Positions 1,695 to 17,749 of a DNA stretch of 64,000 nucleotides are shown in pieces. Every line of letters begins with the position of its first letter. Position 1 is the first letter of the stretch. The DNA is taken from contig OY970368.1 of assembly GCA_963718615.1 (NCBI GenBank), forward strand, positions 4,702,524 to 4,766,523, written 5' to 3'. Source of the DNA: an uncultured cyanobacterium (lineage in GTDB: Bacteria; Cyanobacteriota; Cyanobacteriia; PCC-9006; JAAUQQ01). The notes under the pieces were generated by a model. The model ran no database searches. It saw only the letters and a program-made list of their open reading frames with translations, and had not been told where the DNA came from. A program made the position numbers and the translations under genes.

Positions 1695-1725
1695 TGTCTA
1701 GCAAATTGAGCAAGTCCTTATCCCT

Positions 1726-1980
1726 ATGGTCAGGCCCCAAGACGTCGAAACGATGATCCAAGCGAAATTTCCTGATGCTCAGGTTCAGGTGCAAGACCTG
1801 ACGGGCGGCGGCGATCATTATCAGGTCACCGTCGTGTCTGAAGCCTTTGCGGGCAAGTCCCTGGTTCAGCAGCACCAAATGGTCTACGGCGCGGTTAATG
1901 ATGCCATGGCCAGCGAAGCCATCCATGCCCTAGCGCTCAAAACCTATACGCCGGAGAAGTGGGCTGCTACGAATCCTTGA
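1726..1980 (+). CDS. BolA-family protein
   Basis: 84 aa with BolA-like pattern (...[31 protein letters not shown]...). It sits immediately upstream of a CGFS glutaredoxin, which is the conserved BolA-Grx neighbourhood. Confidence 0.8.
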
Positions 1981-2099
1981 GGCCGATTGTCGTCTGGCTC
2001 CTTGCGGGGCGATCGCCTAAAGTAAAATCATTGCCCATTCACCGACAGCCCATTGACCGACAGCCCATTCACTTAACGTTGATTGAACCCAAATCCCCC

Positions 2100-2423
2100 A
2101 TGAATCCAGAACTCAAAACCAAACTCGATGCCCTAGTCCAAGACAATAAGATCATGGTCTTCATGAAGGGCAATAAGCTCATGCCCCAGTGCGGCTTTTC
2201 CAACAATGTCGTGCAGATTCTGAGCACCCTCGGCATACCCTTTGAAACCGTTGATGTTCTTGCAGACCCTGACATCCGCCAAGGCATCAAAGAATATTCC
2301 AATTGGCCGACCATTCCCCAGGTCTATATCAATGGGCAATTTATCGGCGGTTCCGACATTCTCATCGAACTCTATCAAAGCGGTGAGCTACAGCAGATGG
2401 TTGAGGTAGCGCTCGCATCCTAG
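2100..2423 (+). CDS. grxD: Monothiol (CGFS) glutaredoxin, Grx4/GrxD type
   Basis: Translation from ATG 2100: [41 protein letters not shown]...[19 protein letters not shown], with the CGFS active site. The ORF track starts earlier at 1959, but conserved family length favours 2100. Confidence 0.85.
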
Positions 2424-2475
2424 ACTTCCTAGACCTCCTAGACCTCTTAGGAACGCCGTTAGGAACTCAGATTGA

Positions 2476-2511
2476 AAAAGCCTCCGCATTTCTACGGAGG
2501 CTTTTGTTTTT
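2476..2511 (+). terminator. Rho-independent terminator after grxD
   Basis: Hairpin aaaagcctccg / cggaggctttt with loop catttcta, followed by gttttt. An A-tract upstream makes it potentially bidirectional. Confidence 0.6.
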
Positions 2512-2753
2512 GAAAAAGAGAAAAGCCGTGAACCCACGGTTCTCAATTTTTTGAGAAAGGATATATCACTAGACAGAAATAACTTTTTTCAAGGAATTTA
2601 ACGAGCTAACCAGCGACCCTAAGCTTCTGGCAGACGCGCCTCTTAAGTTCGATCGCCATCAAACCCTAAACAGGACACCATTCGCTAGCTCTTTGTTGGC
2701 CAAAAAGCCTCTACTGCTTCTCCGGTTATTCTCAAGGAATAGCGAAGAAGGAA

Positions 2754-3011
2754 TTAGTAGCGAAAGTCCCGTTCTAGTTCCGGCTGGGGCATATAGGATT
2801 CGAAGTTTGAGGGATCGTAGAGAAACCTCATCGTCTCTTCTTCAAGGCGATGGACATGGAAGGTCTCGACCGTACTGGTATTGCGGAGAGCCGCCAAATA
2901 GCCATCGAGATACAGCCGAAGATCATCCAAGCGATAGCCACGCTCCCAGAGCTCTACCATCGCATCCGTGAGCTTTTGATAGTGACGAATCGCAGCGGGG
3001 TTTTGTAGCAT
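2754..3011 (-). CDS. Conserved hypothetical protein (85 aa)
   Basis: Clean ORF with typical codon usage. No family recognised. Confidence 0.35.
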   Translation of the reverse strand: MLQNPAAIRHYQKLTDAMVELWERGYRLDDLRLYLDGYLAALRNTSTVETFHVHRLEEETMRFLYDPSNFESYMPQPELERDFRY

Positions 3012-3367
3012 AGCAAAACCTTAAGTTTTGTATTCATCAAAGGGTGACAAGACCAGAGGCTTCTAGCCAATGCGGCAGAAACGGTCTGGACAACGAAACC
3101 TAAACGAAGCTTAGAAGAGAAGCCGTACTCTAAAATTGTACTGTGAATCGCTCAGTTGGTGAGTGCGGTCTACCGATTCCCGAAAAAATCATCATTTGGT
3201 CATAATTTTTCGCTTGAGCGTCAAGGTCAGTTTGTAAAACATTGCGTACTTTTATTGAAAAATCTGGCGAGAATCTTTTTCTCAGACCAAGATCAAAACC
3301 TAATAACAGGATAATGCGCTGAACTTCAAGGGAAGTAGCGGCAGTTACAAACGCTTGGGCTGGCGAT

Positions 3368-4372
3368 TTGTTAACGTTACGTTACGGTCTGAAGTGTGCT
3401 TCATCATACTGGGGCTTCCGACGAGATACGGGCAGCATTTTTTGTGAGTGTACCTCTGTGGCTTCTGTACAAATACAGCTAATAGCCGGTAATCCTCACC
3501 TTCGCTCTCTGCTAAGCTGGCATCTTCAGCAGGGCGGGTATCGGGTGTGTCAGGCTATGGGGGCACGTCAGGCGCGTGAACAACTCCAACAGCGATCGCC
3601 CATCCTCGTGGTTTTGGATTGCGAACTGGCGGATGGGGAAGGTTTAGAGCTTTGTCGCTGGATTCGAGCAAACTCTGCGGCATTGCTGATGATGCTCTCG
3701 ACCAAGGGCGCTGAGGGAGATGTAGTCGATGGGCTGCGCTCGGGAGCGGATGACTACGTCACCAAACCCTTTGGCATGCAGGAATTTTTGGCCCGAGTCG
3801 AAGCGCTGATGAGGCGAACGCGGCCTACGTCTCCCCCCGCCCTACTGCATTATGGGGATTTAGAAGTCGATTTAATCCAGCGGCGAGTCCGGCTTTTAGC
3901 GCAGCAGATTGAGCTCACCCCCCAGGAGTTTAGTCTGCTGTATGTTTTGGTGCAAGCGGGTGGTGGGGCGCTATCGCGCAGTGATATTTTGCATCGAGCT
4001 TGGCCAGACGGCATTGATAATCCGAGGACGGTAGATACCCATATTCTCTCTTTGCGTAAAAAACTAGAGGTGGATCCACGTCAGCCCAGTTTGATTCAGA
4101 CTGTCCGGAATGTGGGCTATCGGTTTAATTTGGATGTTTTGGAAAGCGGCCATCGCGCGGAAGAGGGGTCACCCGGTGGCAATCCGTCGCCGAGCGCTCT
4201 CCCGGCAAATCCGACCTTAGGCGGGCAACCGTTATCGGGTAGTGTGGCGGATCCTGATTCCGACTCCAGGGGCAGCGAGGATAGCCATGGCAATGGGCAT
4301 GGGCGGCAGCCGGGTTCGTCGCTGTCTCCGGTGAGTCAGTCGTCCATGGGTCAGTGGCGTTCCTCTCAGTAG
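3368..4372 (+). CDS. OmpR-family response regulator (receiver + winged-helix) with long C-terminal low-complexity tail
   Basis: Receiver-like segment VQIQLIAG...ILVVLDCELADGEG...DDYVTKPF and trans_reg_C segment ELTPQEFSLLYVLVQ...RTVDTHILSLRKKLE...VRNVGYRFN. The true start is uncertain: a GTG near 3459 is possible. An 80-aa Ser/Gly/Pro-rich tail follows the wHTH. Confidence 0.65.
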   Translation: MLTLRYGLKCASSYWGFRRDTGSIFCECTSVASVQIQLIAGNPHLRSLLSWHLQQGGYRVCQAMGARQAREQLQQRSPILVVLDCELADGEGLELCRWIRANSAALLMMLSTKGAEGDVVDGLRSGADDYVTKPFGMQEFLARVEALMRRTRPTSPPALLHYGDLEVDLIQRRVRLLAQQIELTPQEFSLLYVLVQAGGGALSRSDILHRAWPDGIDNPRTVDTHILSLRKKLEVDPRQPSLIQTVRNVGYRFNLDVLESGHRAEEGSPGGNPSPSALPANPTLGGQPLSGSVADPDSDSRGSEDSHGNGHGRQPGSSLSPVSQSSMGQWRSSQ

Positions 4373-4429
4373 CCTTTATTGCAGTCGTCTTTATTGCAGT
4401 CGCCTTTGTTTTATTCGGCGATCTATGTT

Positions 4430-5302
4430 CTAGGCGATATCCTCGTCGTCCCAGTCTTCTGCCTCTGCTTCAGATTGCTGGGATGGGGGGGCCAAACGGA
4501 CTTGCAAAGCTTCCCAATCCTCGATGCTCGTGGGGGCGGTGCGGGGTAAATCTTCTAGGAGTCGACCTCGCTGGAGGCCCAGCAGGCGTTGGCCGAAGAG
4601 AATGGGATAGGAGCTCAAGGATAAGCCGTGCAATCGGCTGGCCCAAACGATCGCCAGTCCTGGGGGATGGGTCTGGCTCAACGCCTCCCAGACCGCTGGG
4701 GAGAAGGGCGAAGTCTGGCGCAGCTGAGGGTCGCTGGGTTCATCCAGGAGCAGGATTTGGGGGTCTAGGACTAAGGCACGGGCGATCGCCACGCGCTGTT
4801 TTTCCAGGGGAGAGAGCTCGGTTTCAGTGCGATCGAGCTGGGCGGTAGAAATTTCTAGGCGGTCAGTCCAGGTGGCAAGCCGTTGCTGAATCGTGAGAGC
4901 GGGGAGTTTTTGGAGCTGGAGGGGATAGGCGATCGCCTCCTTCACCGTCATTCCCAACAAACGCGGCACCTCCGAGACCCAAACCACCTGACGACGTAGG
5001 GTCGGTGCATCCCACTGGTTGAGGGGCTTGCCTTGAAACAGAATGTCACCTTGGCTGGGTGAGAGTAGTCCGTTCAAAAGCCGCAGGAGCAGGGTTTTGC
5101 CGCTGCCGGATTGGCCGAGGAGGAGGAGGCGATCGCCCCCCTGCACTTCAAAGTTCAAGTCCTGCAACAAAAACAAGTTGCCCCGCCGGGGCTGCAGACT
5201 GACGCCGCGAACAGCGAGCAACGGTTGAGGCGTAGCCCCAGGCGGCATCCAGGAAGCCGTCATTAGGTCAGCCCTAGGTGGCCAGTGCTGCCAGCGGTCC
5301 AC
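4430..5302 (-). CDS. ABC transporter ATP-binding protein
   Basis: Walker A GQSGSGKT, ABC signature LSPLEKQRVAIARAL and Walker B LLLDEPS. Confidence 0.8.
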   Translation of the reverse strand: MDRWQHWPPRADLMTASWMPPGATPQPLLAVRGVSLQPRRGNLFLLQDLNFEVQGGDRLLLLGQSGSGKTLLLRLLNGLLSPSQGDILFQGKPLNQWDAPTLRRQVVWVSEVPRLLGMTVKEAIAYPLQLQKLPALTIQQRLATWTDRLEISTAQLDRTETELSPLEKQRVAIARALVLDPQILLLDEPSDPQLRQTSPFSPAVWEALSQTHPPGLAIVWASRLHGLSLSSYPILFGQRLLGLQRGRLLEDLPRTAPTSIEDWEALQVRLAPPSQQSEAEAEDWDDEDIA

Positions 5303-5871
5303 AGCACCCAGGTATCCGTGAGCAGTAACAGACCCGTTAGCCCCAAAAGGATGAAATACATCCAGGGCTGGGCCAGGGGCCGCACATCGCGGGTGTCAAT
5401 GCCTGTATGGGTTTCTACTAGTTTTACCAATCGGGCAAAGCCCGCGATCCGCATGGGCAGCAAAAAGGCCTGACCAGCTTCGTTGAGAAAATAATAGACA
5501 ATCCCGCCCTGGCCTGTGGAACGGGGTTTGAGGCTGCGGATCTCGGACCAATTGAGGGACCAGGAGCGTCGCCAAAGCCACTGAGCCCAAGGGGCGTAGG
5601 TGAGGGTGAGGCCGGTGTCGGTGACGATGACCCGTTCGGTTAAGGCGGCGTAGAGGGCGATCGCCCCCAAGGCTTGCCCCACCGTCAAGAGCAAGGGCGA
5701 AACGCCGCTCCCCGTCACCTGGGCTAATACCGGGAGTGGCAGGGTTAGCGCAGTATAAAACAGCAGCAACGTCAGCCGAATCAGCATCGAAATCCGAAAG
5801 ATTTGCTCAAAGACTGGCTCAGAGATTGGTTCAGAGATTGGTTCAGAGGCTGGTTCATTCACCATGGCCAA
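5263..5871 (-). CDS. Hypothetical membrane protein, likely co-transcribed with the ABC ATPase
   Basis: 202 aa with several hydrophobic helices, overlapping the downstream ABC ATPase by 40 nt. The N-terminus has EPISEPISEP, encoded by a tandem 12-nt repeat at 5807-5860. Confidence 0.4.
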   Translation of the reverse strand: MAMVNEPASEPISEPISEPVFEQIFRISMLIRLTLLLFYTALTLPLPVLAQVTGSGVSPLLLTVGQALGAIALYAALTERVIVTDTGLTLTYAPWAQWLWRRSWSLNWSEIRSLKPRSTGQGGIVYYFLNEAGQAFLLPMRIAGFARLVKLVETHTGIDTRDVRPLAQPWMYFILLGLTGLLLLTDTWVLWTAGSTGHLGLT

Positions 5872-6073
5872 ACACCTCCCGTTCTCGACCGACCCACCAT
5901 TCCCCTAATTTCATCAAATCCTGGTGGATGTCTTGCAGCGTGGCCATGTAATCCTCGGGGGTCATCTCCGAGCGCTGCTCCTGGAGCTTTTTGAGCCGCA
6001 ATTGCACCAGCAGCCAAGGCTTGCTGATGCCGTTGGTCTGATAGATATATTGTCCAAGCTGTTCGCTGTCCAT
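5855..6073 (-). CDS. Small hypothetical protein (72 aa)
   Basis: Translation from ATG 6073: MDSEQLGQYIYQTNGISKPWLLVQLRLKKLQEQRSEMTPEDYMATLQDIHQDLMKLGEWWVGREREVFGHGE. The longer 134-aa track ORF has a low-complexity N-terminal extension that is probably not translated. Confidence 0.3.
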   Translation of the reverse strand: MDSEQLGQYIYQTNGISKPWLLVQLRLKKLQEQRSEMTPEDYMATLQDIHQDLMKLGEWWVGREREVFGHGE

Positions 6074-6260
6074 GGATGGGGATGGATGGGGATGGATCCA
6101 GTTGAAGGGGATACGCAGTATTTTGCCGTACTTTTTAGGGTAACGCTTCGCGAGCGAGGGGGGAGGCATTGCGGGCTGAAATTCCGGGCAAGCGTCGATC
6201 CTGGGACCGACGGGAGAGATTATGATAAGTGAGATTTTTTCACCCACCTGAACCTTCACT

Positions 6261-6911
6261 ATGGCCTTGCAACTGCGTGTTTATGTCCCGCCTCATCCCC
6301 TGATTCGCCACTGGCTGGCGGTGGCTCGGGATGCGGTGACACCTTCACCCCTGTTCCGCACGGCCATGACGGAACTAGGACGCTGGTTGACCTACGAAGC
6401 TGCGCGAGAATGGCTACCCACCCTAGAGGCTCAGGTGCAAACGCCCCTGGCGGAAGCCCCGGCGACGCTGATTGACCCCAATGTGCCGGTGGTGGTGATT
6501 CCGATTTTGCGGGCGGGGCTGTCGCTGCTGGATGGGGCACAAACCCTTTTGCCCCTGGCGGCCATCTATCACTTGGGCATTGTCCGCAACGAAGAAACGC
6601 TGCAACCTTCGTTCTATTTAAACAAGTTGCCCGATCGCCTCGACCCTCAAGCCCGCATTTTGATTTTGGATCCGATGCTGGCTACCGGTGGGACACTCAC
6701 AGCGGCGCTGAATGAACTCGTGGCCCGTGGCGCAGATTTATCCTTAACCCGTGTGGTTTCCGTGGTGGCTGCACCCGTGGCGCTGCAAAGCTTGAGCGAA
6801 AACTATCCGGCGCTGACGATTTATACAGCAGCCATTGACGACGGGCTCAATCAAAGTGGCTTTATTGTTCCAGGGTTGGGAGATGCGGGCGATCGCACCT
6901 TTGGCACCTAA
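6261..6911 (+). CDS. upp: Uracil phosphoribosyltransferase
   Basis: UPRTase motifs ILRAGL, LDPMLATGGT and GLGDAGDRTFGT, at the expected length of 216 aa. Confidence 0.9.
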   Translation: MALQLRVYVPPHPLIRHWLAVARDAVTPSPLFRTAMTELGRWLTYEAAREWLPTLEAQVQTPLAEAPATLIDPNVPVVVIPILRAGLSLLDGAQTLLPLAAIYHLGIVRNEETLQPSFYLNKLPDRLDPQARILILDPMLATGGTLTAALNELVARGADLSLTRVVSVVAAPVALQSLSENYPALTIYTAAIDDGLNQSGFIVPGLGDAGDRTFGT

Positions 6912-7017
6912 TCCCCCGTCAACATCTCCTGTCAACATCCCCCGTCAGCGGATCGACTGAGCGACGGTCCTGCCCTGTAATAAACTTGAGAAAACCGTAC
7001 CGCAAAGGTAAAACGCC

Positions 7018-7374
7018 ATGAGTGAGCGCGACAATTTTGCTGGAGGCTTCATCGCAGGAGCTATTCTGGGCGGTATTTTGGGGGGTGTCTTGGGGGCAAC
7101 TCTGTCCTCCCGTTATGGTCGAGGGGAAGAAGAGGCGATCGCCAAATCCTCTGCCAAATCCTCTCAATCCTCCGCGAGTGGTCGCCGCCGCCGGGGGCAG
7201 TCGGGGGAGCGATCGCCCCTCTCGGTGCCTTCAGAAGCCCGGATCGAAGAAGCCCGCTCTAGCCTAGAAGACAAAATCGCCCAGCTCAATTCCGCTATTG
7301 ATGAAGCTCGGCTCCAGCTCAGCGAAACGGCGGTGCTCAATGCCACCAACCATCAGGCGGCGTCGGACGCTTAG
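7018..7374 (+). CDS. Hypothetical protein with N-terminal Gly-rich hydrophobic segment
   Basis: 118 aa: GGFIAGAILGGILGGVLGA, then a charged, helical C-terminus. No family recognised. Confidence 0.4.
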   Translation: MSERDNFAGGFIAGAILGGILGGVLGATLSSRYGRGEEEAIAKSSAKSSQSSASGRRRRGQSGERSPLSVPSEARIEEARSSLEDKIAQLNSAIDEARLQLSETAVLNATNHQAASDA

Positions 7375-7405
7375 GAGCTGGGGATTAGAGAGCTCAGGGT
7401 GGGGT

Positions 7406-8284
7406 TCAGGGCTCAGAGAGAATTGCTCCGCTGAGGTTCGCGCCGGTCAGGTCGGCGTTGGTGAGATTGGCGCGGCGTAGATTGGTGTCAATCAAAATGG
7501 TGTTGACCAGAATTGCCCCCGACAAATTCGACCAGGTGAGTCGGGCTCGGTAGAGGTTAGCTTCGGAAAAATCTACCTCCCGCAGACTAGACCAGTTGAG
7601 ATTGGCCCCTCGCAAATTCGCCCCTCGAAAGCTCGCCCGATACAGATTGGCCCCAATCAGGGTGACCTGGCTGAGGTCAGCCTCTTCAAAATTGCTTTGA
7701 ACCACACTGGCCCCGTTGAGCATGGCTCGGGTCAGACGGGCTTGCCTGAAATTGGCTTCATTAAGCTGGGCATTGGTCAGATTGGCTTCTTCTAGCGTCG
7801 TCTTGGCCAGATAGCTGTGCATCAGCTTGGCGCGGCTGAGATTGCTGCTCGTTAGGTCCGCATGGGAGAGATCCGCCTCTTGCAAATTGGCTTCGCTAAA
7901 GTTGGCCTGCTGAAGCTGACAGCCCCGGAGATTGGCCCGCAGCAGACAAGCGCCACGCAGGCTAGCATCCGTGAGCGTGGCCCCAGAAAGATTGGCGGCG
8001 GTGAGGTCCGCGCCAATGAAATTGGCCTCGGTGAGGTCGGCCCCCACGAGATTGGCTCCAGCAAGATTGGCATCCCGCAAATTAATGCCCTGAAGTTTAG
8101 CCCGGTTGAGATTGACGCCTCGCAGGTCCGCATCCCGCAGGCTAATTTCCTGGAGCTCGGCCCGCGAAAGCTGGCTACCTGAAAGGCTGGCATCTCGAAA
8201 AACTCGCTCACCCTCTGCATATTGCCGCAGCAACTCTGTTCCGTTCATGGCTGTCCTCGAAGTTATCCCCGAAAAAAAGATCAC
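7406..8284 (-). CDS. Pentapeptide-repeat protein
   Basis: Continuous A(D/N)LxxA(N/D)L pentapeptide repeats over about 250 aa. Confidence 0.85.
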
Positions 8285-8376
8285 CGAGGCACCCCCTAAT
8301 TACCCTGTTCGTTGTGAACCAAATGCTTCAGGATTCTGGGACAATCAGGTTCAGAGAGAATAAAGGATCAAGACCG

Positions 8377-10074
8377 ATGCCAGAAAACCGCAGAAGCCAA
8401 ATCATCACCCAGGGCGTGCAGCGATCGCCCAACCGCGCGATGCTCCGGGCCGTAGGGTTTGGCGATGAGGATTTTACCAAGCCCATCGTCGGGGTCGCCA
8501 GTGCCCACAGTACGATTACGCCCTGCAATATGGGGATTGCGCCCCTAGCGGAGCAGGCAGAAGCGGGAATCCGGCAGGCGGGGGGCATGCCCCAGATTTT
8601 TGGCACGATTACGATTAGTGACGGCATTTCCATGGGCACGGAGGGGATGAAATATTCCCTGGTGTCGCGGGATGTGATTGCGGATTCGATCGAGACGGCC
8701 TGCATGGGCCAGAGTATGGATGGGGTGTTGGCGATCGGCGGCTGCGATAAGAATATGCCCGGTGCGATGATTGCCATGGCGCGGATGAATATTCCGGCAG
8801 TCTTTGTCTATGGCGGAACAATTAAGCCCGGTCATCTGGATGGCCAAGACTTGACCGTGGTCAGTGCCTTTGAGGCGGTGGGCCAGTACAGCGCTGGACG
8901 GATCGAAGAGTCGATGCTCTATGCGGTTGAGCGCAATGCCTGTCCGGGGGCGGGATCCTGTGGGGGGATGTACACGGCGAATACGATGTCCTCGGCCTTT
9001 GAGGCGATGGGGATGAGCCTGATGTATTCGAGTACGATGTCGGCGATCGATGCAGAAAAAGCGAAGAATACGGCGCTGGCGGGTCAGGTTTTGGTGGAGG
9101 CGATTCGCAATCAGATTTTGCCGAGGGATATTATTACTCGCCAATCGATTGAGAATGCGGTGTCGGTGATTATGGCGGTGGGGGGATCGACGAATGCGGT
9201 GTTGCATTTTTTGGCGATCGCCCACGCTGCTCAAGTCGATTGGACTATCGACGATTTCGAGCGCATCCGCGCCAAGGTTCCGGTCCTCTGCGATCTCAAA
9301 CCCAGCGGTCGCTATGTTGCGACGGATTTGCATCAGGCGGGTGGTATTCCCCAGGTGATGAAAATGCTGCTCAACCATGGACTGCTCCACCCGGACTGTC
9401 TGACGGTGACTGGGGAGACGATTGCTGAGCGGCTGCGGGATGTGCCGGATGAACCGACGCCCTATGAGCCGATCGCCGGACATCCGGTGATTCGTCCCTG
9501 GGATAATCCGATGTATGCCCAGGGTCACTTGGCGATCCTTAAGGGCAATCTGGCCACGGAGGGAGCCGTGGCCAAAATCTCGGGGGTGAAAAACCCCGTG
9601 ATCACGGGACCGGCAAGGGTCTTTGAATCGGAGGAAGATTGCTTGGCGGCAGTCCTCGACAAGAAAATCAATCCCGGCGATGTGCTGGTGATTCGCTATG
9701 AAGGGCCGAAGGGTGGCCCCGGTATGCGAGAAATGCTAGCTCCGACTTCGGCGATTATCGGTGCGGGGCTTGGCGATTCTGTGGGGCTGATTACGGATGG
9801 TCGTTTCTCGGGTGGGACCTACGGGATGGTGGTGGGCCATGTTGCGCCGGAGGCTTTTGTGGGGGGAACGATTGGCTTGGTCCAGGAGGGGGATTCGATT
9901 ACGATCGATGCGCCCCAGCGGTTGCTTCAGCTCAATCTTTCCGAGGAGGAGTTGGCGCAGCGACGGGCGGCTTGGACTCAGCCGGAACCGCGTTATCAGC
10001 GGGGGGTATTGGCGAAGTATGCGAAGTTGGTTTCGACGAGTAGTTTGGGGGCGGTGACGGATCGGGATCTCTAG
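8377..10074 (+). CDS. ilvD: Dihydroxy-acid dehydratase
   Basis: 565 aa from ATG 8377 ([33 protein letters not shown]...CDKNMPG...). Full-length IlvD/EDD family. The track ORF begins 21 codons earlier. Confidence 0.95.
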
Positions 10075-10081
10075 GCAAGCC

Positions 10082-10104
10082 GGGACATGGCAATGCCATG
10101 TCCC
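10082..10104. terminator. Perfect palindromic hairpin 8 nt after the ilvD stop; member of a dispersed hairpin repeat
   Basis: gggacatggc-aat-gccatgtccc, a 10-bp stem with a 3-nt loop. A second copy at 55453-55475 carries a compensatory T/A to G/C change. There is no clear T-tract on the plus strand. Confidence 0.5.
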
Positions 10105-10575
10105 TACGGGATTCATGATGAACGTCAGTGATGCCCAAAAGTCTTCTAGCCATCTAGCGGACTGCGAACGCTTCGGCCTCCGCGATTGAGCACATGGGTG
10201 TAGATCATGGTTGTCTTGACATCTTTTTGACCCAGACGTAGACCGCTACTGTAGAGAATCTGAATCATTAGCCGATAAACCCCAGACAGGTTCTTAATGA
10301 TTGCGCAAGTCTCATCAGTCTTGTCTGAACGATAAGAATTAATGTTTGAGACGCAAGGCTTCTCGAACCCTGTCTAGAAGCTTCTTTGGAGGTTTTTGCA
10401 TGGTAGTGTGATAAATCGAATAATTCGGCAGATCACCCTAAATGGCATGATATTCAGAATAATTCTGATGTACTCCTGGGGATATAGGTCAAAATTCTGC
10501 ATATCACCCCTCAGGGAGGCAATATACGGAAAACTCTGCATACTAAATTGTTAGAATTTTTCATGACACTTTTTC

Positions 10576-11028
10576 ATGACACTCCCCATTGCCAACCTAA
10601 TCATCCCGACTTGGGCCCTCTACACTACCAGTGGGCTCTTTGGGTTCCCCGTGATGCTGATCTTGGTGTCAATAGCTGAATCTGCCATCCTCATCCGTCC
10701 CAACTACCCTCACCACTCAGTCCCTCGCATCTTGGCTATGGTAACCATCGCCAATGCCGCCTCCACCATGGTCGGGATCCTCATCCTCGCCATGGCAAAT
10801 CCTCAACCACCCAGATCAGGTGATGCCGTCCTCGTACAAATCATCACGGCACCGACCATTATGGCCATATGCGCAATGTGCCTTGCCTCCTTCATCATTG
10901 AGGCCCTTGTCCTCTTCCCCACCCTGCCCAAGGCACCCAAGCTAGACCTGATCGTCTACATACTCTTTGCCAATATTGTCTCATACTCGGCCTTCTACCT
11001 CATCGTCTTTTGGATCGAATTGTTTTGA
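10576..11028 (+). CDS. Hypothetical integral membrane protein (about 4 TM)
   Basis: 150 aa, strongly hydrophobic, with no recognised family. It abuts the recombinase fragment. Confidence 0.4.
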   Translation: MTLPIANLIIPTWALYTTSGLFGFPVMLILVSIAESAILIRPNYPHHSVPRILAMVTIANAASTMVGILILAMANPQPPRSGDAVLVQIITAPTIMAICAMCLASFIIEALVLFPTLPKAPKLDLIVYILFANIVSYSAFYLIVFWIELF

Positions 11029-11080
11029 GAAATTTTTCCCAATTGAATCCTCTCCTTATCCCTTCAACCCCGTATCCAAA

Positions 11081-11320
11081 TTAACGTGAAGGCTTTGCCC
11101 GAAGGGCCTGAACATTTTCAAGTGGCTGTTGAAAAATCTCACGATAGAGAAATAAAACTGCACTTTCGGTCACGCCCATGTCCTTGGGATGTCGCTTGTT
11201 GTGAAACAGAATGTAACGCCGAATCCACTGAACGTAAGTTTGCTCTGTTTTGTAGGAATAGTGATTGAGTCGTAGGGCTACACGGACTTGATCTAGAAGC
11301 TTGGGGGGCTGGGATTGCAT
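11081..11320 (-). pseudogene. Integron-type tyrosine recombinase (IntI-like) N-terminal fragment, internally deleted and truncated
   Basis: LLDQVRVALRLNHYSYKTEQTYVQWIRRYILFHNKRHPKDMGVTE aligns with IntI1 [45 protein letters not shown] (Phage_int_SAM_4-type N-terminal domain). ...FLYREIFQQPLENVQALRAKPSR then aligns with IntI1 ...[24 protein letters not shown], skipping about 22 residues. A stop follows PSR and the catalytic domain is absent in every frame. Confidence 0.7.
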
Positions 11321-11415
11321 GGGAGCCGAGGATGAAGCCTCTGGGTTCCCTGACTCGGTGGTGAAGATTTTGTAATTTTCTACGCTGACTCAAATGGGGT
11401 GATTATACTGAGACA

Positions 11416-11650
11416 TGCCTGATAATACCTGTGTAGGGATGTTATCCGGCAGCGGTGCCGGGATAACGCCTAGAAATGGGTTGTTATCACGCACCTTCGC
11501 CTGATAATACCCAACCAGGGATGTTATCCAGCATGATTGCCTGGATAACTGGCTAAGACTGGGGATTATACGGCGTTGGCGCTTGAGAATACCCGGAGGA
11601 GGGAGTTATCAGGCATCGTGCATGAGAATAAGTTGTTATGCCGCTGAGTT
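11416..11650. repeat. Array of structured direct and inverted repeats next to the recombinase 5' end (att-like region)
   Basis: An approximately 85-bp unit occurs twice: gcctgataatacc-N7-gggatgttatcc-N12-ggataac(g/t). Further diverged copies occur once inverted (gagttatcaggc) and once as gttgttat(c/g)(a/c)cgc. The motif TATCAGG/CCTGATA recurs at 14265-14300. Confidence 0.5.
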
Positions 11651-11819
11651 TCTGGTGGAGACATAGCCGCAATATTGCTTACTGGTGTCCGATATCAAGT
11701 TGCTTTGAGACAACGCAAATCGAGAGTTGCCTTAAAAGTAGAAAGCTCAAAAACCTTCTACATTGTCTATGCCGTTGAGTTATGTTATTACCAAGCAATT
11801 CATAAGTAATTAAAGAGAC

Positions 11820-12154
11820 ATGACAACCCTGCTTGTTCTTGGCAATATTAATCAGTTTACATTTGCAAACTCTGTAATCGCAGCTAACGCCAAGGCTGAG
11901 GAAATATTTGAGCAGGGTCTAACAAATATATTTGTTGTGCATTCAAGAGACTCCTATACCAAGCTAAAGAGTAATGAAGATTGGGTAGATCATGCAGAGG
12001 CAAATGGTGTAAGCCGAGAATTATTTGTTGATAAAATTGTTGAGATCACAGCAGAAGATGACTCAATTAAAAGATTCGTTGATTATATTGAGGGTAGTGC
12101 CTTTAGCTGGGGGATGAGTATGGTGTGGCCATTAGAGAAAGAAAAAGCAAACTG
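11820..12154 (+). pseudogene. 5' fragment of an AT-rich gene interrupted by the IS1-family element
   Basis: The ORF MTTLLVLGNINQF...SAFSWGMSMVWPLEKEKANW runs into the IS left inverted repeat. The tail after that is IS-derived sequence. It has the same strand and AT-rich composition as the ORF downstream of the IS. Confidence 0.4.
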
Positions 12155-12180
12155 GGTAAGACCCTTCTGTGCCAATTGCG

Positions 12181-12492
12181 ATGACTCAAGAGCTGCTTCA
12201 TTGTCCTAACTGTCTATCTGAAGATATCAGCCGTAACGGCTTCAACGATCGCGGTACTCAAAGCTATAAATGTCGAGATTGCCATCGCCGGTTTGTCCTG
12301 ACTCCGAAATCCCTTCCCTTGAGCGATGAAGAGATAGCCTTGCTCGAACGTTTATTGCTTGAAAGGCTAGCCATCGCTGGAATTGCTCGGGTGATGCAGC
12401 GCTCCGAGAGCTGCATTCAGACCTACGTCAACGCCAAAGCTAAAACCGTTGCTCGGGAGGTGGAAGTGACGAAGAAAGTAAAAAAGCTCTGA
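12181..12492 (+). CDS. insA: IS1-family transposase InsA (zinc-finger/HTH)
   Basis: MTQELLHCPNCLSEDISRNGFNDRGTQSYKCRDCHRRFVLTP... with a C4 zinc finger. Confidence 0.75.
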   Translation: MTQELLHCPNCLSEDISRNGFNDRGTQSYKCRDCHRRFVLTPKSLPLSDEEIALLERLLLERLAIAGIARVMQRSESCIQTYVNAKAKTVAREVEVTKKVKKL

Positions 12493-12500
12493 CGGTCCAG

Positions 12501-12941
12501 ATGGACGAACTCTGGTCGTTCGTGGACCATAAAGGAAATAAACAGTGGGTTTGGATTGCTCTAGATGCGGACACTCGCGAAATCATTGGCCTTTATATCG
12601 GGGACCGAAGTGCTAAATCTGCCGAAGCTTTATGGCGGTCTCTACCGGGAGTGTACCGCCAATGTGCAGTCATCTACACCGATTATTGGGAGAGCTATGC
12701 CTGTGTGCTTCCTAGCCAACGCCACCGAGCGGTTGGGAAAGAAAGCGGGCTGACGAGCTACATCGAGAGGTTCAACTGCACCCTGCGGCAAAGGGTGTCG
12801 CGCTTGGTCCGAAAGGCGCTCTCGTTTTCAAAGAAACAAGAGAACCACGAGGCTGCGATCTGGAATTTCGTTCACCATTACAACCAGCAATTGCGCCTTA
12901 AGCAGGCTCATACCGCTTCATTCTCTCCAGCACCCACATAA
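12501..12941 (+). CDS. insB: IS1-family transposase InsB (catalytic domain; normally made as an InsAB frameshift fusion)
   Basis: MDELWSFVDHKGNKQWVWIALDADTREIIGLYIGDRS... with the DELWSFV motif diagnostic of IS1 InsB. The frame is -1 relative to insA. Confidence 0.8.
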   Translation: MDELWSFVDHKGNKQWVWIALDADTREIIGLYIGDRSAKSAEALWRSLPGVYRQCAVIYTDYWESYACVLPSQRHRAVGKESGLTSYIERFNCTLRQRVSRLVRKALSFSKKQENHEAAIWNFVHHYNQQLRLKQAHTASFSPAPT

Positions 12942-13098
12942 TTGGACTACCTATATTGAGTTTATTTTAAAAGGTATCCCAAATGGATCAAGACTTATCG
13001 TTGATATTACAAATGGGACTTCATTACAAAAAAATCTACTCTCAATAGCTTCTTATATCCTTGACATAAAAAATCAATACACGATCGATGTTTCCAAG

Positions 13099-14145
13099 TT
13101 GTTTGAACTAACTAAAGAAAGAGGCTTTCTGCCAACTGATATTTTGCTATCCTGCTATGCCCCAGTTCCTGATAGCACTAGACTTGATGGCATCGCCTAT
13201 CTAAATCTGTCAGAAATGGTACGCTACAGGAAAATTATAGAATCTCATACTAACAAGTATGTAGCCATAGATCCAAGTTCCTCTGATAGAGAGTTTTTCA
13301 AGGATAACTTGGGTCATTCTATTCAGTTAAAGTTACAAGGAGATCAAAGCAAAGATAACGCTATATATCGCATAGCGGCTTCATCAATTTCGGCAAGCGT
13401 GGAGGATCTAATTCGTCTTCTGGTGAGCAAATTTATCCTAGCTGATACTCCTGATGGAGTAGATCGCAAAACTTTTGGGCAAAAACTCAAAATTATTCAA
13501 GCCAAAATTGAGAAAGATGCGCCGTCTGACTTTGATATAGAGTTTTTTAGCAAGTTCAATGATTTCATTTTGTACTTGAGAAATAGTTCCACACATAAAG
13601 GTAAGCTTTTAACTGACTTGGAGAAGTTCAAGGCAGAGCTTTCTGTCAAAATGGCTTTTCCCTTTATTGAATTTTATACAGATATCGTGCATCCTTTGCT
13701 ATCAAGTGGTGAGCTTTCTAGAGAGCCAAAGCATATGAAAAAATTAACGTATGCTGATATAGCACCAGGAGACACCTTGTATTATGGGTTGGACGGAGAT
13801 GATACAGGAAAGATATTAGAAGAACTTTTTCTTGCCTGTAGCGATGAATCTAGCTTTCGGAAATTGAGCAAAGATGTAGCAAATGCGATTTCAAAAATTT
13901 CTAGATTTGTTACTGATAAGCTTGGTAAGAATGCAATTGTATTTGAGGCGGGTGACGATCTTTTGTTCAAGGGAAATTTTCAAGAAGATATGCTTTTGGA
14001 AATGCAAGCTATGTATTCACAATTAACACCTGGGCTAACGTGTTCAATTGGTTATGGGCGATCATTTCAAGAGGTATATTTAGCATTAAAACTCGCAAAG
14101 ACCCAGCCAGGTAAAAATGCTATTGTTGGAATTGAGCTTTGCTGA
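13099..14145 (+). CDS. Predicted HEPN-like (Rx4H) domain fused to minimal GGDEF/Cas10-like palm cyclase (mCpol-like); N-terminus truncated by IS1
   Basis: The C-terminal 150 aa carry YYGLDGDDTG (acidic metal-binding strand), FEAGDDLLF (aligns with GGDEF RYGGEEFVV and GGDD of Cas10) and LTCSIGYG (SxG strand). The N-terminal helical part has LRNSSTHKG (R-x4-H). The track start is a TTG; the frame is open for a further 147 nt back to the IS end at 12952 with no ATG. The region is AT-rich. Confidence 0.5.
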   Translation: MFELTKERGFLPTDILLSCYAPVPDSTRLDGIAYLNLSEMVRYRKIIESHTNKYVAIDPSSSDREFFKDNLGHSIQLKLQGDQSKDNAIYRIAASSISASVEDLIRLLVSKFILADTPDGVDRKTFGQKLKIIQAKIEKDAPSDFDIEFFSKFNDFILYLRNSSTHKGKLLTDLEKFKAELSVKMAFPFIEFYTDIVHPLLSSGELSREPKHMKKLTYADIAPGDTLYYGLDGDDTGKILEELFLACSDESSFRKLSKDVANAISKISRFVTDKLGKNAIVFEAGDDLLFKGNFQEDMLLEMQAMYSQLTPGLTCSIGYGRSFQEVYLALKLAKTQPGKNAIVGIELC

Positions 14146-14389
14146 GCTTGTCGCAGCATAACATAGGCCCTGAGCCGGACGGGGTCAATAGAGAAGATAA
14201 AAAATAACTCTGATGTAATGTCTGAGCGAATTGAAGCCAGCGCAAACCACCTGATAGTCAGTTTTGAGTATCAGCCGAACTGAGCTATCAGAGCCATCTT
14301 CGTATTTTTCGTATTCGATTGGTTCAAAACCTAAAGCAGTTCAATCGAGCAACAAAATAGAGACCTAAGCCGGTAAAAGAGCGACCAAA

Positions 14390-14790
14390 GGAGAGTTTTT
14401 GCGCCGGAGAGCAGCGAGATACTTTTCCTCATCATAAGGAGTCCTATCCTGCCAACACCGCCAAAGAATCCGACCCCCTTTATACGCCAAAGCACGAATA
14501 GCCTTTTGATGGGATTTACCCGCCAGTCGTTTTTGTTGATAAAATGCCTGTGACCAGACCGAGCGAGACCGAGCATGGGTGACCCACTCGACAAAAGTTT
14601 GCCTCAGAAAGATAGGACAAGACCAACGCCAATGGACCCAACGTTGCTTGCCAATTTCCTCCGCCTGAGGGGTGGCCTGAATAGTGGATTGTGCCCAGGT
14701 CTCATTCTGGCAATCGTAGAGAGCAATATCATGTTTGCGGTCTGTCCAATCAATGCCGATATAGGCAGCATAAACGGTTGTGAAGAGATT
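14390..14790 (-). pseudogene. IS110-family (DEDD) transposase relic
   Basis: Minus-strand translation gives YIGIDWTDRKHDIALYDCQNETWAQ...FYQQKRLAGKSHQKAIRALAYKGGRILWRCWQDRTPYDEEKYLAALRR. This joins an IS110 N-terminal IGIDxxK motif to a C-terminal Transposase_20-like tail. The middle is missing and there is no start codon. Confidence 0.45.
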
Positions 14791-15430
14791 AGGTCAAAGG
14801 TCTTTCCCTGCTCCCTGAGGATTCGTTAGGCAGCGAGCGGATGGGCTGGACGGGCGATTCGATTGGTTAGTAGTCATCTTCTGACTGGCGCTGCATAGTC
14901 GTCCCGACAATCTGGCAGATGCTCTCCTTTCTTGACTTTATGCGCTTCTGTCAAATTCGCGCATGGGAGAGGGATGAGCGATTCGGTATGTTCGTAGACA
15001 TCCTCTGTGTCGTCCAATGCATAGTCGTCTCTTCCTGGTTCTTCTTCCCCGTCCCCCATAAAGTCGATGAAGCGGACGGTTGGAAGATTTATTTTTGCGG
15101 GGATGCTGAGGTTGCCTGCCGCCGCTTGTCTTGGTCGTTAGACCGACAAAGCAAGATAGAGAAACAAGCAAGAGAATTTGAGTTTTCCGGTGTTGGAGAC
15201 AGTCTTGTGGCAGAATCAGCAGAACGCAATCAAGAAACTTCACCGACAAACTTGCAACGATCGCTGAATCAGAAACATGAAAAAGCCTTAGGGGACAAGC
15301 TGTATCAGACAGAAAGAAATAGATTCTTGTCAGTTCGTTCCCTGACCTTCTCACACTGCGCGTGTTTCCGCCCATCAGCATAGTTAATTAGGGTAAAATG
15401 AGAGGGCTGAGTTGAAATGAGGTCAAGCCT

Positions 15431-15703
15431 ATGACAGTTCGCCAACGACGGTATAGCAAGGAAGAGTTAGCCCGACGCGGACAAGAACTCTATGAGTCTG
15501 GAATTCGGCAGCAGGTTGAAGCCGGTAACGATGGAAAAATTGTGGCGATCGACATTGAAACCGGAGAGTTTGAGGTTGATGAAACGGTCATGGGTGCGAC
15601 CGATCGGCTATTTGAACGCCTGCCTGATGCTCAACCTTGGACGCTGCGAATCGGACACAGCGCCGTCTATCATTTTGGAGCGAGGAGTCTGAAGAAAGAT
15701 TAA
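15431..15703 (+). CDS. Small conserved protein, upstream partner of a retropepsin-like protease
   Basis: 90 aa (...GKIVAIDIETGEFEVDETVMGATDRLFERLP...). Its stop overlaps the next start as TAATG. Confidence 0.5.
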   Translation: MTVRQRRYSKEELARRGQELYESGIRQQVEAGNDGKIVAIDIETGEFEVDETVMGATDRLFERLPDAQPWTLRIGHSAVYHFGARSLKKD

Positions 15704-16071
15704 TGATTCGTGGAGTGGTTAATTTTCGCTATGAACTCATGCTTCCCCTTGTAGTCGGGAACTCGAATGGACAACGAGAGTTCGTCAATACCGTAATCGA
15801 TACTGGATTTGATGGGTTCTTGTCCTTGCCCTCTGAAATAATTGCTCGTCTTGAATTGCCTTGGAGGACTTCCAATATCGCGACCTTGGGAGATGGTAGC
15901 AAAACCCTGTTTGACTTTTACACCGGAACCGTCATCTGGGATGGTCAATATCGCTCGATCGACATTGCTGAATCAGAGACGGAACCCCTGCTAGGACTGG
16001 CAATACTTCGCGGATATCGATTGCAGGTCGATAATGTTGAGGGAGGTATCGTCGAGATTGATGCACTGTGA
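15703..16071 (+). CDS. Retropepsin-like (clan AA) aspartic protease
   Basis: MIRGVVNFRYELMLPLVVGNSNGQREFVNTVIDTGFDGFLSLP... with the D-T-G catalytic motif and retropepsin size. The start is at the ATG of TAATG; the track ORF starts at an out-of-context upstream Met. Confidence 0.65.
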   Translation: MIRGVVNFRYELMLPLVVGNSNGQREFVNTVIDTGFDGFLSLPSEIIARLELPWRTSNIATLGDGSKTLFDFYTGTVIWDGQYRSIDIAESETEPLLGLAILRGYRLQVDNVEGGIVEIDAL

Positions 16072-16273
16072 TTGTGTGCGAGAGTGATCGGTGAGGCGCG
16101 GTCTAACAATGCGATGGAGCGGCGAATAAAGTTTTTTCGCTTCGTTTCGGTTCTACTTGTCGCTGCTCATCTTCACCGTTGTGCCGCTGGTTTAAGGTGT
16201 TACTGTTTCTGAAGATTGATCGGTCACCTGCGAGAATTAATTACACATCGTTAGCTATATTGAAAGCACTTTT

Positions 16274-16816
16274 ATGTTAAAAGCTGGAAGGCTTACGACT
16301 TGGAAGGATGATCGTGGTTTTGGGTTTATCGAACCTGAAGATGGCAGCAAAGCCGTCTTCCTTCACGTCAGCGAAGTCAAGAATTTGAGTCGTCGTCCGC
16401 AGACTGGTGACACAGTTTTTTACGAGCCACGGGTTGAGAACAATGGGAAAGTGCGTGCAACTAAGGTCTCGATTCAAGGCGTTGCACCTCGAAGCATTAC
16501 ACCTCGAAATCAGCCTGTAGGTGGTCGGTTTCAACAGCGAATTGTCGAAACTGCCATCGCACTTGCCTTACTAATAGCGATTGTGGCTGTGGGCAGCCGA
16601 TTTGTGCCAAGCCGCTCTCCATCTCCTATAGCCGCAGTGACCAAGCCGAACTGCCAGATTAAAGGAAATATTTCGGTTTCATCGGGCAACAAGATTTATC
16701 ACCTGCCAGGGATGGAAGACTATGCATCGACTGTAATTGATGAAGGCGCTGGAGAGCAGTGGTTTTGTTCTGAGTCAGAGGCGATCGCGGCAGGGTGGAA
16801 GAAGGCTCCTCGCTAG
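16274..16816 (+). CDS. Cold-shock-domain protein with TM segment and conserved Cys-containing C-terminal domain
   Basis: N-terminus WKDDRGFGFIEPEDGSKAVFLHVSEV (CSD-like), a hydrophobic helix AIALALLIAIVAVG, and C-terminus CQIKGNISVSSGNKIYHLPGMEDYASTVIDEGAGEQWFCSESEAIAAGWKKA. Confidence 0.55.
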   Translation: MLKAGRLTTWKDDRGFGFIEPEDGSKAVFLHVSEVKNLSRRPQTGDTVFYEPRVENNGKVRATKVSIQGVAPRSITPRNQPVGGRFQQRIVETAIALALLIAIVAVGSRFVPSRSPSPIAAVTKPNCQIKGNISVSSGNKIYHLPGMEDYASTVIDEGAGEQWFCSESEAIAAGWKKAPR

Positions 16817-16925: not shown

Positions 16926-17240
16926 TTGTTTAGAATTATAGGCATGGACGTTTATTGTGTGCTGAATGGCATTACATTTATCTGGAATCCAGAAAAGGCC
17001 CGGATTAATCCAGTCAATCATGATGGGATTACCTTTCAGCAAGCGGCTGAGGCATTTTTTGATCCATTCCTGATTCTGGTTGATGCCAGTCGCAACGATG
17101 AAGCAAGAGATGCCGTGATTGGCCTGGATACACGCTATAACTTGCTTTATGTCGTGCATATTGAGCAAGAGGGTGATTGTATTCGGATTATTTCTGCGCG
17201 TAAAGCAACCCGACAAGAGAGGATGAACTATGAAAGTTGA
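16926..17240 (+). CDS. brnT: BrnT-family ribonuclease toxin (DUF497)
   Basis: ITFIWNPEKARINPVNHDGITFQQAAEAFFDPF...RIISARKATRQER matches the BrnT pattern FxWDxxKAxxNxxKHGVxFxEA...RIISARKA. The start may be the internal Met at 16944. Confidence 0.7.
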   Translation: MFRIIGMDVYCVLNGITFIWNPEKARINPVNHDGITFQQAAEAFFDPFLILVDASRNDEARDAVIGLDTRYNLLYVVHIEQEGDCIRIISARKATRQERMNYES

Positions 17241-17523
17241 AGCCTTAAAGAAAAGATTGGATAAGAATCGACCTATGAGCAGCGTAACGATTCGGATGCC
17301 GGAAGATGTCGTGGAAGACTTGAAGCGAGTTGCGCCATTGTTAGGCTTTTCTGGATATCAGCCATTGATTCGGGCTTACATCGGCCAGGGATTACGTGCT
17401 GACTTGGAGCGATTTGAAGGTGAGATGGTGAGTGCGTTGATTGCCAGCTTGAAGCGACGGGGTGTGAGCGATACCGTAATTGATGAAGCGTTGAGAGAGG
17501 TTGTGCCAGCGGTAGCCAGTTAA
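17230..17523 (+). CDS. brnA: BrnA-family antitoxin
   Basis: 97 aa (MKVEALKKRLDKNRPMSSVTIRMPEDVVEDLKRVAPLLGFSGYQPLIRAYI...). It overlaps brnT by 11 nt and has the BrnA-type CopG-like fold signature. Confidence 0.7.
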   Translation: MKVEALKKRLDKNRPMSSVTIRMPEDVVEDLKRVAPLLGFSGYQPLIRAYIGQGLRADLERFEGEMVSALIASLKRRGVSDTVIDEALREVVPAVAS

Positions 17524-17749
17524 TCTGTGTTTACCAGCAGTACAACAACTTGGATGCAGCGGACTCGCAGGATTGATCACTAATGGACGTAGCGTAGCTT
17601 CGAGCCGCTGATCAAAAACGTTAGTGTTCAAAATCACGAAGCAACAACGCAAGTTTGAGCTTGTGCATGAGATTTAGATTTCACTACAATTTCCACATCT
17701 CGCCCCAAAGCATTGAGAAAGCGAAAGAATCGTGCGGTCGAAAAACCTG

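Follow-up and report, generated by a model that had tools for sequence, protein, structure and literature searches.

What was the gene that an insertion sequence (IS) has cut in two at this locus, and what did its product do before the cut? The question is raised by positions 11,820 to 14,145 of a 64,000-nucleotide stretch of DNA, called the window throughout, from an uncultured cyanobacterium (GTDB lineage Bacteria, Cyanobacteriota, Cyanobacteriia, PCC-9006, JAAUQQ01; NCBI GenBank assembly GCA_963718615.1, contig OY970368.1, positions 4,702,524 to 4,766,523, forward strand). Taken as a whole, the locus is probably an integron-cassette copy, killed by an IS1-family element, of a gene whose intact protein joins a nucleotide cyclase (mCpol), a ligand sensor (CARF) and a ribonuclease (RNase; HEPN) in one circuit, with a lean towards a guard function. 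A first-pass annotation, made by a model from the letters of the sequence, had already proposed an IS1-split gene with a signalling or defence role.

One gene divided by an IS1-family element

Alignment to intact orthologues proves that the two open reading frame (ORF) pieces on either side of the element are one gene. In a blastn comparison with an uninterrupted orthologous locus, L003, window positions 11707-12092 correspond to 1685-2068 and positions 12952-14163 to 2060-3271, the two alignments overlapping by exactly 9 nt, and a 9-nt overlap at the IS site is also seen in nine further loci (L010-L018). Excision of 12093-12960 joins 11820-12092 to 12961-14145 in a single open frame of 1458 nt and 485 codons, close to the roughly 500 amino acids foreseen in the first-pass annotation, which had advised looking for uninterrupted orthologues in related cyanobacterial genomes and had conceded that the pieces might come from unrelated genes; such orthologues were found, align across the IS site and span both pieces. 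The best of 186 homologues, the intact protein P0001, matches the reconstructed 485-residue protein with 97% identity at 100% coverage. The gene parts and the parts of the element are as follows.

11820-12092, plus strand: 5' gene part with codons 1-91, covering the first half of CARF (ORF list, reconstruction, blastn stop at 12092)
12084-12092, plus strand: first copy of the 9-bp target-site duplication, TATATTGAG, a perfect repeat forming the last 9 nt of the 5' gene part
12093-12951, plus strand: IS1-family insertion sequence, 859 bp (inverted repeats, Pfam, NCBIfam)
12093-12116: left inverted repeat, starting GGTAGTGCC (repeat search)
12169-12492, plus strand: insA (Pfam Zn_ribbon_InsA)
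12501-12941, plus strand: insB' (Pfam DDE_Tnp_IS1; NCBIfam transpos_IS1, 112 bits against a cut-off of 100)
12928-12951: right inverted repeat, ending GGACTACC (repeat search)
12952-12960, plus strand: second copy of the target-site duplication, TATATTGAG (perfect repeat; overlap of the orthologue alignments)
12961-14145, plus strand: 3' part of the gene, codons 92-485 and stop (reconstruction, identity to P0001, PADLOC match, AlphaFold2 boundaries)

The element, present as a single copy within the window, has the marks of the IS1 family, namely InsA and InsB' in frames related by -1 and set for frameshifting, with an A6G run at 12480-12486, together with terminal inverted repeats and a 9-bp target duplication. 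It shares with other members the zinc ribbon and helix-turn-helix of InsA, the DDE domain of InsB', the A-run slippery site, terminal repeats beginning GGTA and the 9-bp duplication in AT-rich DNA, whereas IS1 of Escherichia coli is shorter, at 768 bp against the 859 bp found here. Its left end had been placed at 12155 in the first-pass annotation, which is 62 nt off, since the inverted repeats and the orthologues put it at 12093. The in-silico deletion of 12155-12951 suggested on that basis does open the frame, though only when a further 2, 5, 8 or 11 nt are removed, and the restored frame is spurious; with 8 bp more taken out, this excision retains about 21 IS-derived codons and was rejected, the orthologues confirming 12093-12960 instead. 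Codons 92-129 of the ORF at 11820-12209 are IS-derived.

Downstream of the element the early description held in full. The ORF at 13099-14145 starts with TTG, encodes 348 amino acids and carries the three palm motifs YYGLDGDDTG, FEAGDDLLF and LTCSIGYG as well as LRNSSTHKG, and upstream of its TTG the frame is open back to 12952 at the right end of the IS. The low guanine-cytosine content is also real, amounting to 36.6% in the gene, 50.8% in the IS, 57.9% in the upstream neighbour ilvD and 52.8% over the whole window.

According to the reconstruction and the AlphaFold2 model, the insertion point falls between codons 91 and 92 and lies within a helix of CARF. The gene is without damage other than this insertion, and the ratio of nonsynonymous to synonymous substitution rates (dN/dS) is 0.08-0.11 against six intact orthologues, from which it follows that the insertion is recent. 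This copy is thus a recently inactivated pseudogene, and the circuit is broken and without effect in this genome. Damage is also seen elsewhere in the family: locus L031 (4581-5152) has an internal deletion that leaves only about the first 70 and about the last 110 codons, and protein P0024 from Nostoc edaphicum is called from residue 177 onward, being short at its N-terminus. Together with the IS-split copy in the window, these cases suggest that the gene is often lost or costly.

Domain architecture and catalytic residues

As judged from sequence profiles and a structure model, the reconstructed protein is a CARF sensor, a HEPN RNase and an mCpol domain (a minimal Cas10 palm cyclase) in one chain, in other words a Csx1/Csm6-like RNase fused to a cyclase. 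The PADLOC-DB model CARF_HEPN_mCpol (PDLC01967) covers residues 1-485 with profile positions 1-471 of 471 (E 5.3e-219, 726 bits). The C-terminal part is matched by Pfam mCpol PF18182 at residues 365-482 (profile 1-114 of 114, 131.1 bits against a cut-off of 26.4, E 3e-38) and by NCBIfam NF033576 mCpol (134.1 bits against a cut-off of 40). In the AlphaFold2 monomer, predicted with a mean local distance difference test score (pLDDT) of 82, an alpha/beta domain at residues 1 to about 160 is followed by an all-helical domain at about 163-340 and a beta-alpha-beta-beta-alpha-beta domain at about 350-485. On the DNA, the domains and motifs lie as follows.

to about 13167, plus strand: end of the CARF domain (AlphaFold2 boundaries)
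about 13174-13707, plus strand: HEPN domain (AlphaFold2 boundaries)
13579-13596, plus strand: HEPN motif R298-N-S-S-T-H303 (RNxxxH), with R298, N299 and H303 invariant
about 13777-14142, plus strand: mCpol domain (AlphaFold2 boundaries)
13792-13803, plus strand: first palm metal-binding strand, D369-G-D-D372 (hidden Markov model alignment to 9mnr/9nwn; D369, G370 and D371 invariant)
13951-13959, plus strand: hairpin G422-D423-D424, equivalent to GGDD (profile alignment, conservation)

The N-terminal domain takes the Rossmann-like CARF fold and the helical domain the HEPN bundle fold, while the mCpol part forms one minimal palm, which can be superposed on solved mCpol structures and, at a greater distance, on the palms of Cas10 and GGDEF proteins. 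In Foldseek comparisons, Csm6' and Csm6 were matched over about 410 columns, and OptS, the cyclase of the Panoptes defence system, with a template modelling (TM) score of 0.78-0.82. Conservation was read from an alignment of 25 sequences reaching down to 47% identity. In the CARF domain, G8, N9, T14-F-A-N17, D106 and N109 are invariant; G8-N9 and T14-F-A-N17 form the conserved polar and glycine motif after strand 1, and the DxTHG-type motif after strand 4 reads D106-x-T108-N109-G-T, with T108 kept in at least 90% of the sequences and an asparagine in place of the usual histidine. In the mCpol domain, G367, D369, G370, D371, T373, G374, G422 and D423 are invariant and D424 is kept in at least 90%. 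A profile alignment to OptS sets its D6 against D369 and its D57 against D423, and both of these OptS residues are catalytic and hold metals (PMC12657218).

The palm cyclase recognised at first pass is thus upheld by the PADLOC, Pfam and NCBIfam mCpol matches, by the TM score of about 0.8 to OptS and by the invariant D369 and D423, and both the palm fold and the acidic residues that structure prediction was expected to reveal are present. Its reading of an R-x4-H arrangement as a HEPN active site stands as well, on the fold and on an invariant motif of the Rx4-6H type, with sequence profiles silent. Intact homologues carry both the GDD motif (G422 and D423 invariant, D424 as above) and Rx4H (R298 and H303 invariant). 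The proposal of a two-domain HEPN-cyclase fusion was right for both domains and missed the CARF domain, whose first half precedes the IS.

A rare family without a fixed partner

A search of 5.8 billion clusters gave the 186 homologues, mostly 480-495 amino acids long, among them named orthologues ('mCpol domain-containing protein') in Nostoc, Anabaena, Crocosphaera, Aulosira and Kouleothrix. In 1.84 billion representatives at 50% identity there are 212 matches at E <= 1e-3 and about 45 full-length clusters, which makes this a rare family. Among species-representative genomes it occurs in the cyanobacteria Nostoc, Phormidesmis, Rivularia, Anabaena, Crocosphaera, Richelia, Geitlerinema and Fischerella, and outside them in Chloroflexia, Saprospiraceae, Trueperaceae, Acidobacteriota and Chlorobium. 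The viral contigs of IMG/VR yielded no relative, leaving carriage by phages unsupported.

In an all-against-all comparison of 389 neighbouring ORFs, no neighbour family occurs in more than 3 of 24 loci. On this basis the gene is a one-gene, stand-alone system. There are no cas families among the called genes of L001-L009, and no cas neighbour is conserved across the 24 loci. A 125-residue ORF without a Pfam match shares the mCpol cassette in L007 and stands near the gene only in L007, L019 and L030.

A probable integron cassette

The gene is AT-rich foreign DNA and probably the first cassette of a chromosomal integron with a decayed integrase. Nucleotide homology to its closest relatives (90-95% by blastn) is confined to a unit running from 11627/11739 to 14163, and the flanks are unrelated, from which it follows that the unit is mobile. 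Its start varies between about 11627 and 11739 by locus, as compared in Nostoc, Phormidesmis, Rivularia and metagenome contigs. The integron features of the window are these.

10146-10268, minus strand: C-terminal remnant of an integron integrase (NCBIfam TIGR02249, positions 285-313 of 315, E 3e-11)
11081-11320, minus strand: N-terminal remnant of an integron integrase (Pfam Phage_int_SAM_4, E 8e-15; TIGR02249 positions 1-45)
11635-11641, plus strand: GTTATGC, a putative attI/R'-type core at the 5' junction (read from the sequence)
11707-11819, plus strand: untranslated 5' segment conserved in the mobile unit (blastn, upstream comparison)
14156-14184, plus strand: GCATAAC followed by ATAGGCCCTGAGCCGGACGGGG, just past the stop codon and resembling the R''-L'' half of an attC site (orthologous cassettes have full sites here)

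The integrase remnants are divergent from the cassette, and the middle of the integrase gene is missing or has been replaced; larger intI fragments lie at the same position beside the mCpol gene in L003 and L022. GTTATGC, one position off the GTTRRRY consensus, recurs in the corresponding position of L003 and L010. At the other end of the unit, a simple home-made scan, which gave 0 matches in 439 kb of shuffled sequence, finds full attC-like sites immediately behind the stop codon in L003 (3264-3350), L007 and L022, and in L011 and L017 the layout R''-L''...L'-R' was recognised by eye and by folding. Locus L007 (Kouleothrix sp., GCA_016722075.1) holds twelve similar attC-like sites of about 127 nt around small same-strand ORFs at 964-16560, a layout typical of a large sedentary chromosomal integron, here in a Chloroflexota genome; its mCpol cassette (7487-9733) includes the 125-residue ORF, which is uncharacterised, at 7581-7958. 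Orthologous cassettes are 88-95% identical in DNA as far as the R'' heptamer GCATAAC, after which the attC-like sequences differ by host (L003, L010, L011, L017), and in L012 and L013 no attC-like sequence follows the gene; it seems that the attC does not move together with its cassette here.

The highly iterated palindrome (HIP1) octamer GCGATCGC separates the island from its host. The window contains 77 such sites where 1.8 are expected, about one per 830 bp, and being HIP1-rich the host is recognised as a cyanobacterium; a HIP1-free gap of 7.5 kb (9221-16781) takes in the remains of intI, the mCpol cassette with its IS and the cassettes that come next, and since it is without HIP1 sites the island next to ilvD is taken to be foreign. 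Integron cassettes are known carriers of compact, streamlined defence systems (bioRxiv 10.1101/2024.07.02.601686), and an integron-cassette context for this fusion was not found in the searchable literature.

Relation to known systems

The CARF-HEPN-mCpol architecture is already known and catalogued. In the accounts given by PMC6452270 and PMC13577387 it is attributed to Burroughs et al. (2015, NAR 43:10633) and Makarova et al. (2020, NAR 48:8828), and Gruschow et al. likewise treat it as known. Koonin and Makarova have taken this architecture as an argument that type III effector modules descend from a signalling system that stood alone (PMC6452270), and Sullivan et al. (2025) noted mCpol-HEPN fusions, leaving negative as against positive regulation as something that 'remains to be seen' (PMC12657218). 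No experimental study of a CARF-HEPN-mCpol fusion was found in the literature. The first-pass reading of a single-polypeptide signalling or defence effector is therefore supported as an interpretation, whereas the novelty it implied was overstated, as a PADLOC model exists. With that model (PDLC01967) the protein shares all three domains, their order and their length, and no difference was found in the protein itself, the copy here being distinguished only by its IS.

The nearest characterised relatives differ more. Panoptes type II (mCpol with a CARF-TM effector, signalling by cyclic triadenylate, cA3; PMC13577387) likewise combines an mCpol cyclase with a CARF sensor, occurs in cyanobacteria too (Cylindrospermum) and has no infection-sensing domain, its product being made constitutively and holding the effector off; it consists, however, of two genes with a membrane effector, whereas here one polypeptide carries a soluble HEPN RNase and has no conserved partner. 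OptS of Panoptes type I (KpOptS, PDB 9mnr/9pd0/9nwn; PMC12657218, PMC12657230) is a free-standing protein of about 120 residues that makes cyclic dinucleotides, works with a 2TM-beta membrane effector and has largely lost GGDD (AADG), whereas the CARF-HEPN-mCpol family keeps AGDD. Panoptes is defined by an operon with a separate 2TM-beta or CARF-TM effector, and no family of neighbouring genes is shared by more than 3 of the 24 loci, so that CARF-HEPN-mCpol proteins stand outside Panoptes by definition, though they may work like it. Csm6 and Csx1 are encoded at CRISPR-cas loci and are supplied in trans with a ligand made by Cas10 within a CRISPR RNA-guided complex, while in the present protein synthase and RNase form one chain; a type III ancillary effector would lie in or next to a cas10 locus, and the 24 loci share no conserved gene.

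How the intact protein may have worked

By analogy with these relatives, a pair of mCpol palms would make a cyclic oligonucleotide, probably an oligoadenylate, and the CARF dimer would bind this product. The state of CARF binding would in turn set the composite HEPN RNase site (R298/H303), and once this was active RNA would be degraded and growth would stop. As all three domain families act as homodimers, one homodimer could hold the complete circuit of synthesis, sensing and RNA cutting. Csm6 and Csx1 are dimeric. The active site of OptS is a composite of two protomers (PMC12657218). A choice of ligand from structure among cA3, cyclic tetraadenylate (cA4) and cyclic hexaadenylate (cA6) gave no call, as cA6 binders and cA4 binders are both found among the closest structures.

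The sign of this regulation can be put forward only tentatively, as a guard of the Panoptes kind. Under such a logic, the nucleotide that the protein makes for itself would hold the RNase inactive until phage sponges or ring nucleases depleted that nucleotide and so set the enzyme free. The lean in this direction comes from the lack of any further sensor domain and from the behaviour of the mCpols studied so far: in both Panoptes types, I and II, the enzyme is constitutive and the effector is kept inactive by what it makes (PMC13577387, PMC12657218), and the inhibitory sensor of type II is a CARF domain (PMC13577387).

Several points weigh against the explanation as a whole. The AlphaFold2 monomer has a predicted TM score (pTM) of 0.41, so the relative arrangement of its domains is not established. 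The HEPN domain is not recognised by sequence profiles, a Pfam search of 22 members at E <= 10 returning one Abi_2 match (E 0.013) and a profile search of the PDB giving no HEPN match; the domain is assigned from its fold, its motif and the PADLOC model name, and the failure of the profiles weakens this assignment without excluding it. HEPN families are notoriously divergent. As to the cassette, neither a mismatch search nor local alignment found the L'-R' partner of the window attC, which is apparently truncated and only half present, and the attC scan is a crude one. To our knowledge, all characterised CARF-HEPN RNases (Csm6, Csx1) are activated by their ligand rather than switched off by it, which favours the opposite sign of regulation.

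With that opposite sign, the protein would signal positively in the manner of type III CRISPR: mCpol would stay silent until an infection cue, after which cyclic oligoadenylate would bind CARF, turn on the HEPN RNase and bring about abortive infection. The CARF-HEPN part is structurally closest to the ligand-activated Csm6, Csm6' and Csx1, and the authors of the Panoptes work leave the sign open for mCpol-HEPN combinations (PMC12657218), yet this arrangement, the main rival, is rather unlikely, since CARF, HEPN and mCpol fill the 485 residues and leave no domain to act as infection sensor or cyclase gate, all mCpols assayed so far are constitutive, and a synthase tethered 1:1 to its sensor, without amplification, would activate itself unless it were tightly gated.

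The surroundings and the damaged copies bear on a second alternative, of still lower probability, in which the protein is an addiction or stabilisation module, or a stress-triggered growth-arrest module, kept by cassette mobility and not primarily directed against phages. The gene does lie in cassette arrays beside BrnT/BrnA and PIN cassettes, a stress-response or programmed-cell-death ancestor with these domains has been proposed by Koonin and Makarova (PMC6452270), and the several damaged copies (the IS-split gene of the window, L031 and P0024) fit a costly gene. The characterised relatives, however (Panoptes, Csm6/Csx1, HEPN toxins, AbiA), all act in phage defence or conflict, a dN/dS of about 0.1 across hosts shows that the protein itself is under selection, and integron cassettes are reservoirs of streamlined defence systems (bioRxiv 10.1101/2024.07.02.601686). 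That the 348-residue ORF from TTG 13099 is still expressed as a CARF-less HEPN-mCpol protein with retained function is very improbable: the ORF is intact with its frame open from the IS end, and a 129-residue upstream product identical to the split-gene fragment is recorded as a called gene (P0163), but the TTG is residue 138 of the conserved 485-residue protein and lies inside the CARF fold, a promoter and terminator scan did not rise above shuffled background, the 348-residue form was not found on record, and nearly all full-length family members retain CARF.

Surroundings of the cassette

Further small cassettes and attC-like sites follow the mCpol gene on the same strand.

15431-16071, same strand as the cassette: two overlapping ORFs, no Pfam match
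16101-16184: attC-like site after the two overlapping ORFs (home-made scan)
16274-16816, same strand: cold-shock-domain protein in a small cassette
16926-17523, same strand: BrnT/BrnA toxin-antitoxin pair in a small cassette
17540-17626: attC-like site after the BrnT/BrnA pair (home-made scan)

Between the intI remnant and the cassette, the 261 nt at 11400-11660 form nested imperfect palindromes with GTTATC...GATAAC stems. As single-stranded DNA they fold with an energy of -48.4 kcal/mol, compared with -29 in shuffled sequence (z = -6.0); Tandem Repeats Finder reported nothing in this segment and no Rfam family matched it, nor was any Rfam family found in the region from 9 to 19 kb. At the equivalent place L003 has different repeats, GTAGATCTAC / GCTGCTGATCCA. 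The palindromes could be a binding array of the attI region or a small miniature inverted-repeat transposable element.

Between the two integrase ends, on the other strand, lies a hydrophobic ORF of 150 residues (10576-11028) without a Pfam match, and a second short stretch resembling an integrase N-terminus is found at about 10340-10400. Where the attC of the mCpol cassette breaks off, at 14190-14650, there are short minus-strand ORFs, for example at 14365-14490, which contains RCWQDRTPYDEEKYLAAL; they resemble the C-terminal remnant of a transposase and have no Pfam match.

Meaning for the family

At this locus lies an inactivated member of a family already catalogued, and existing knowledge of that family is left unchanged by it. 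What is added here is a corrected reconstruction of the gene, a set of invariant residues (D369, D423, R298, H303 and D106/N109), and evidence, drawn from sequence comparison, that the gene is partner-free and would move as an integron cassette. The family packs the synthase, the sensor and the effector of a cyclic-nucleotide pathway into 485 residues and has been proposed to be left over from the ancestor of type III CRISPR-Cas signalling (PMC6452270); since the Panoptes work appeared in 2025-2026 it has been an obvious case for deciding between inhibitory and activating mCpol signalling. If the guard reading were true, a phage deploying sponges or ring nucleases would itself trigger the degradation of RNA, and a gene needing no partner would be spreading as a single cassette among cyanobacteria, Chloroflexia, Bacteroidota and other phyla. 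A one-polypeptide guard of this kind, whose cyclase would continuously load its own CARF sensor, is possible though short of an even chance. It would in effect be a third type of Panoptes, spread as a single cassette, and no living system would come nearer to the stand-alone one from which type III CRISPR signalling is proposed to descend.

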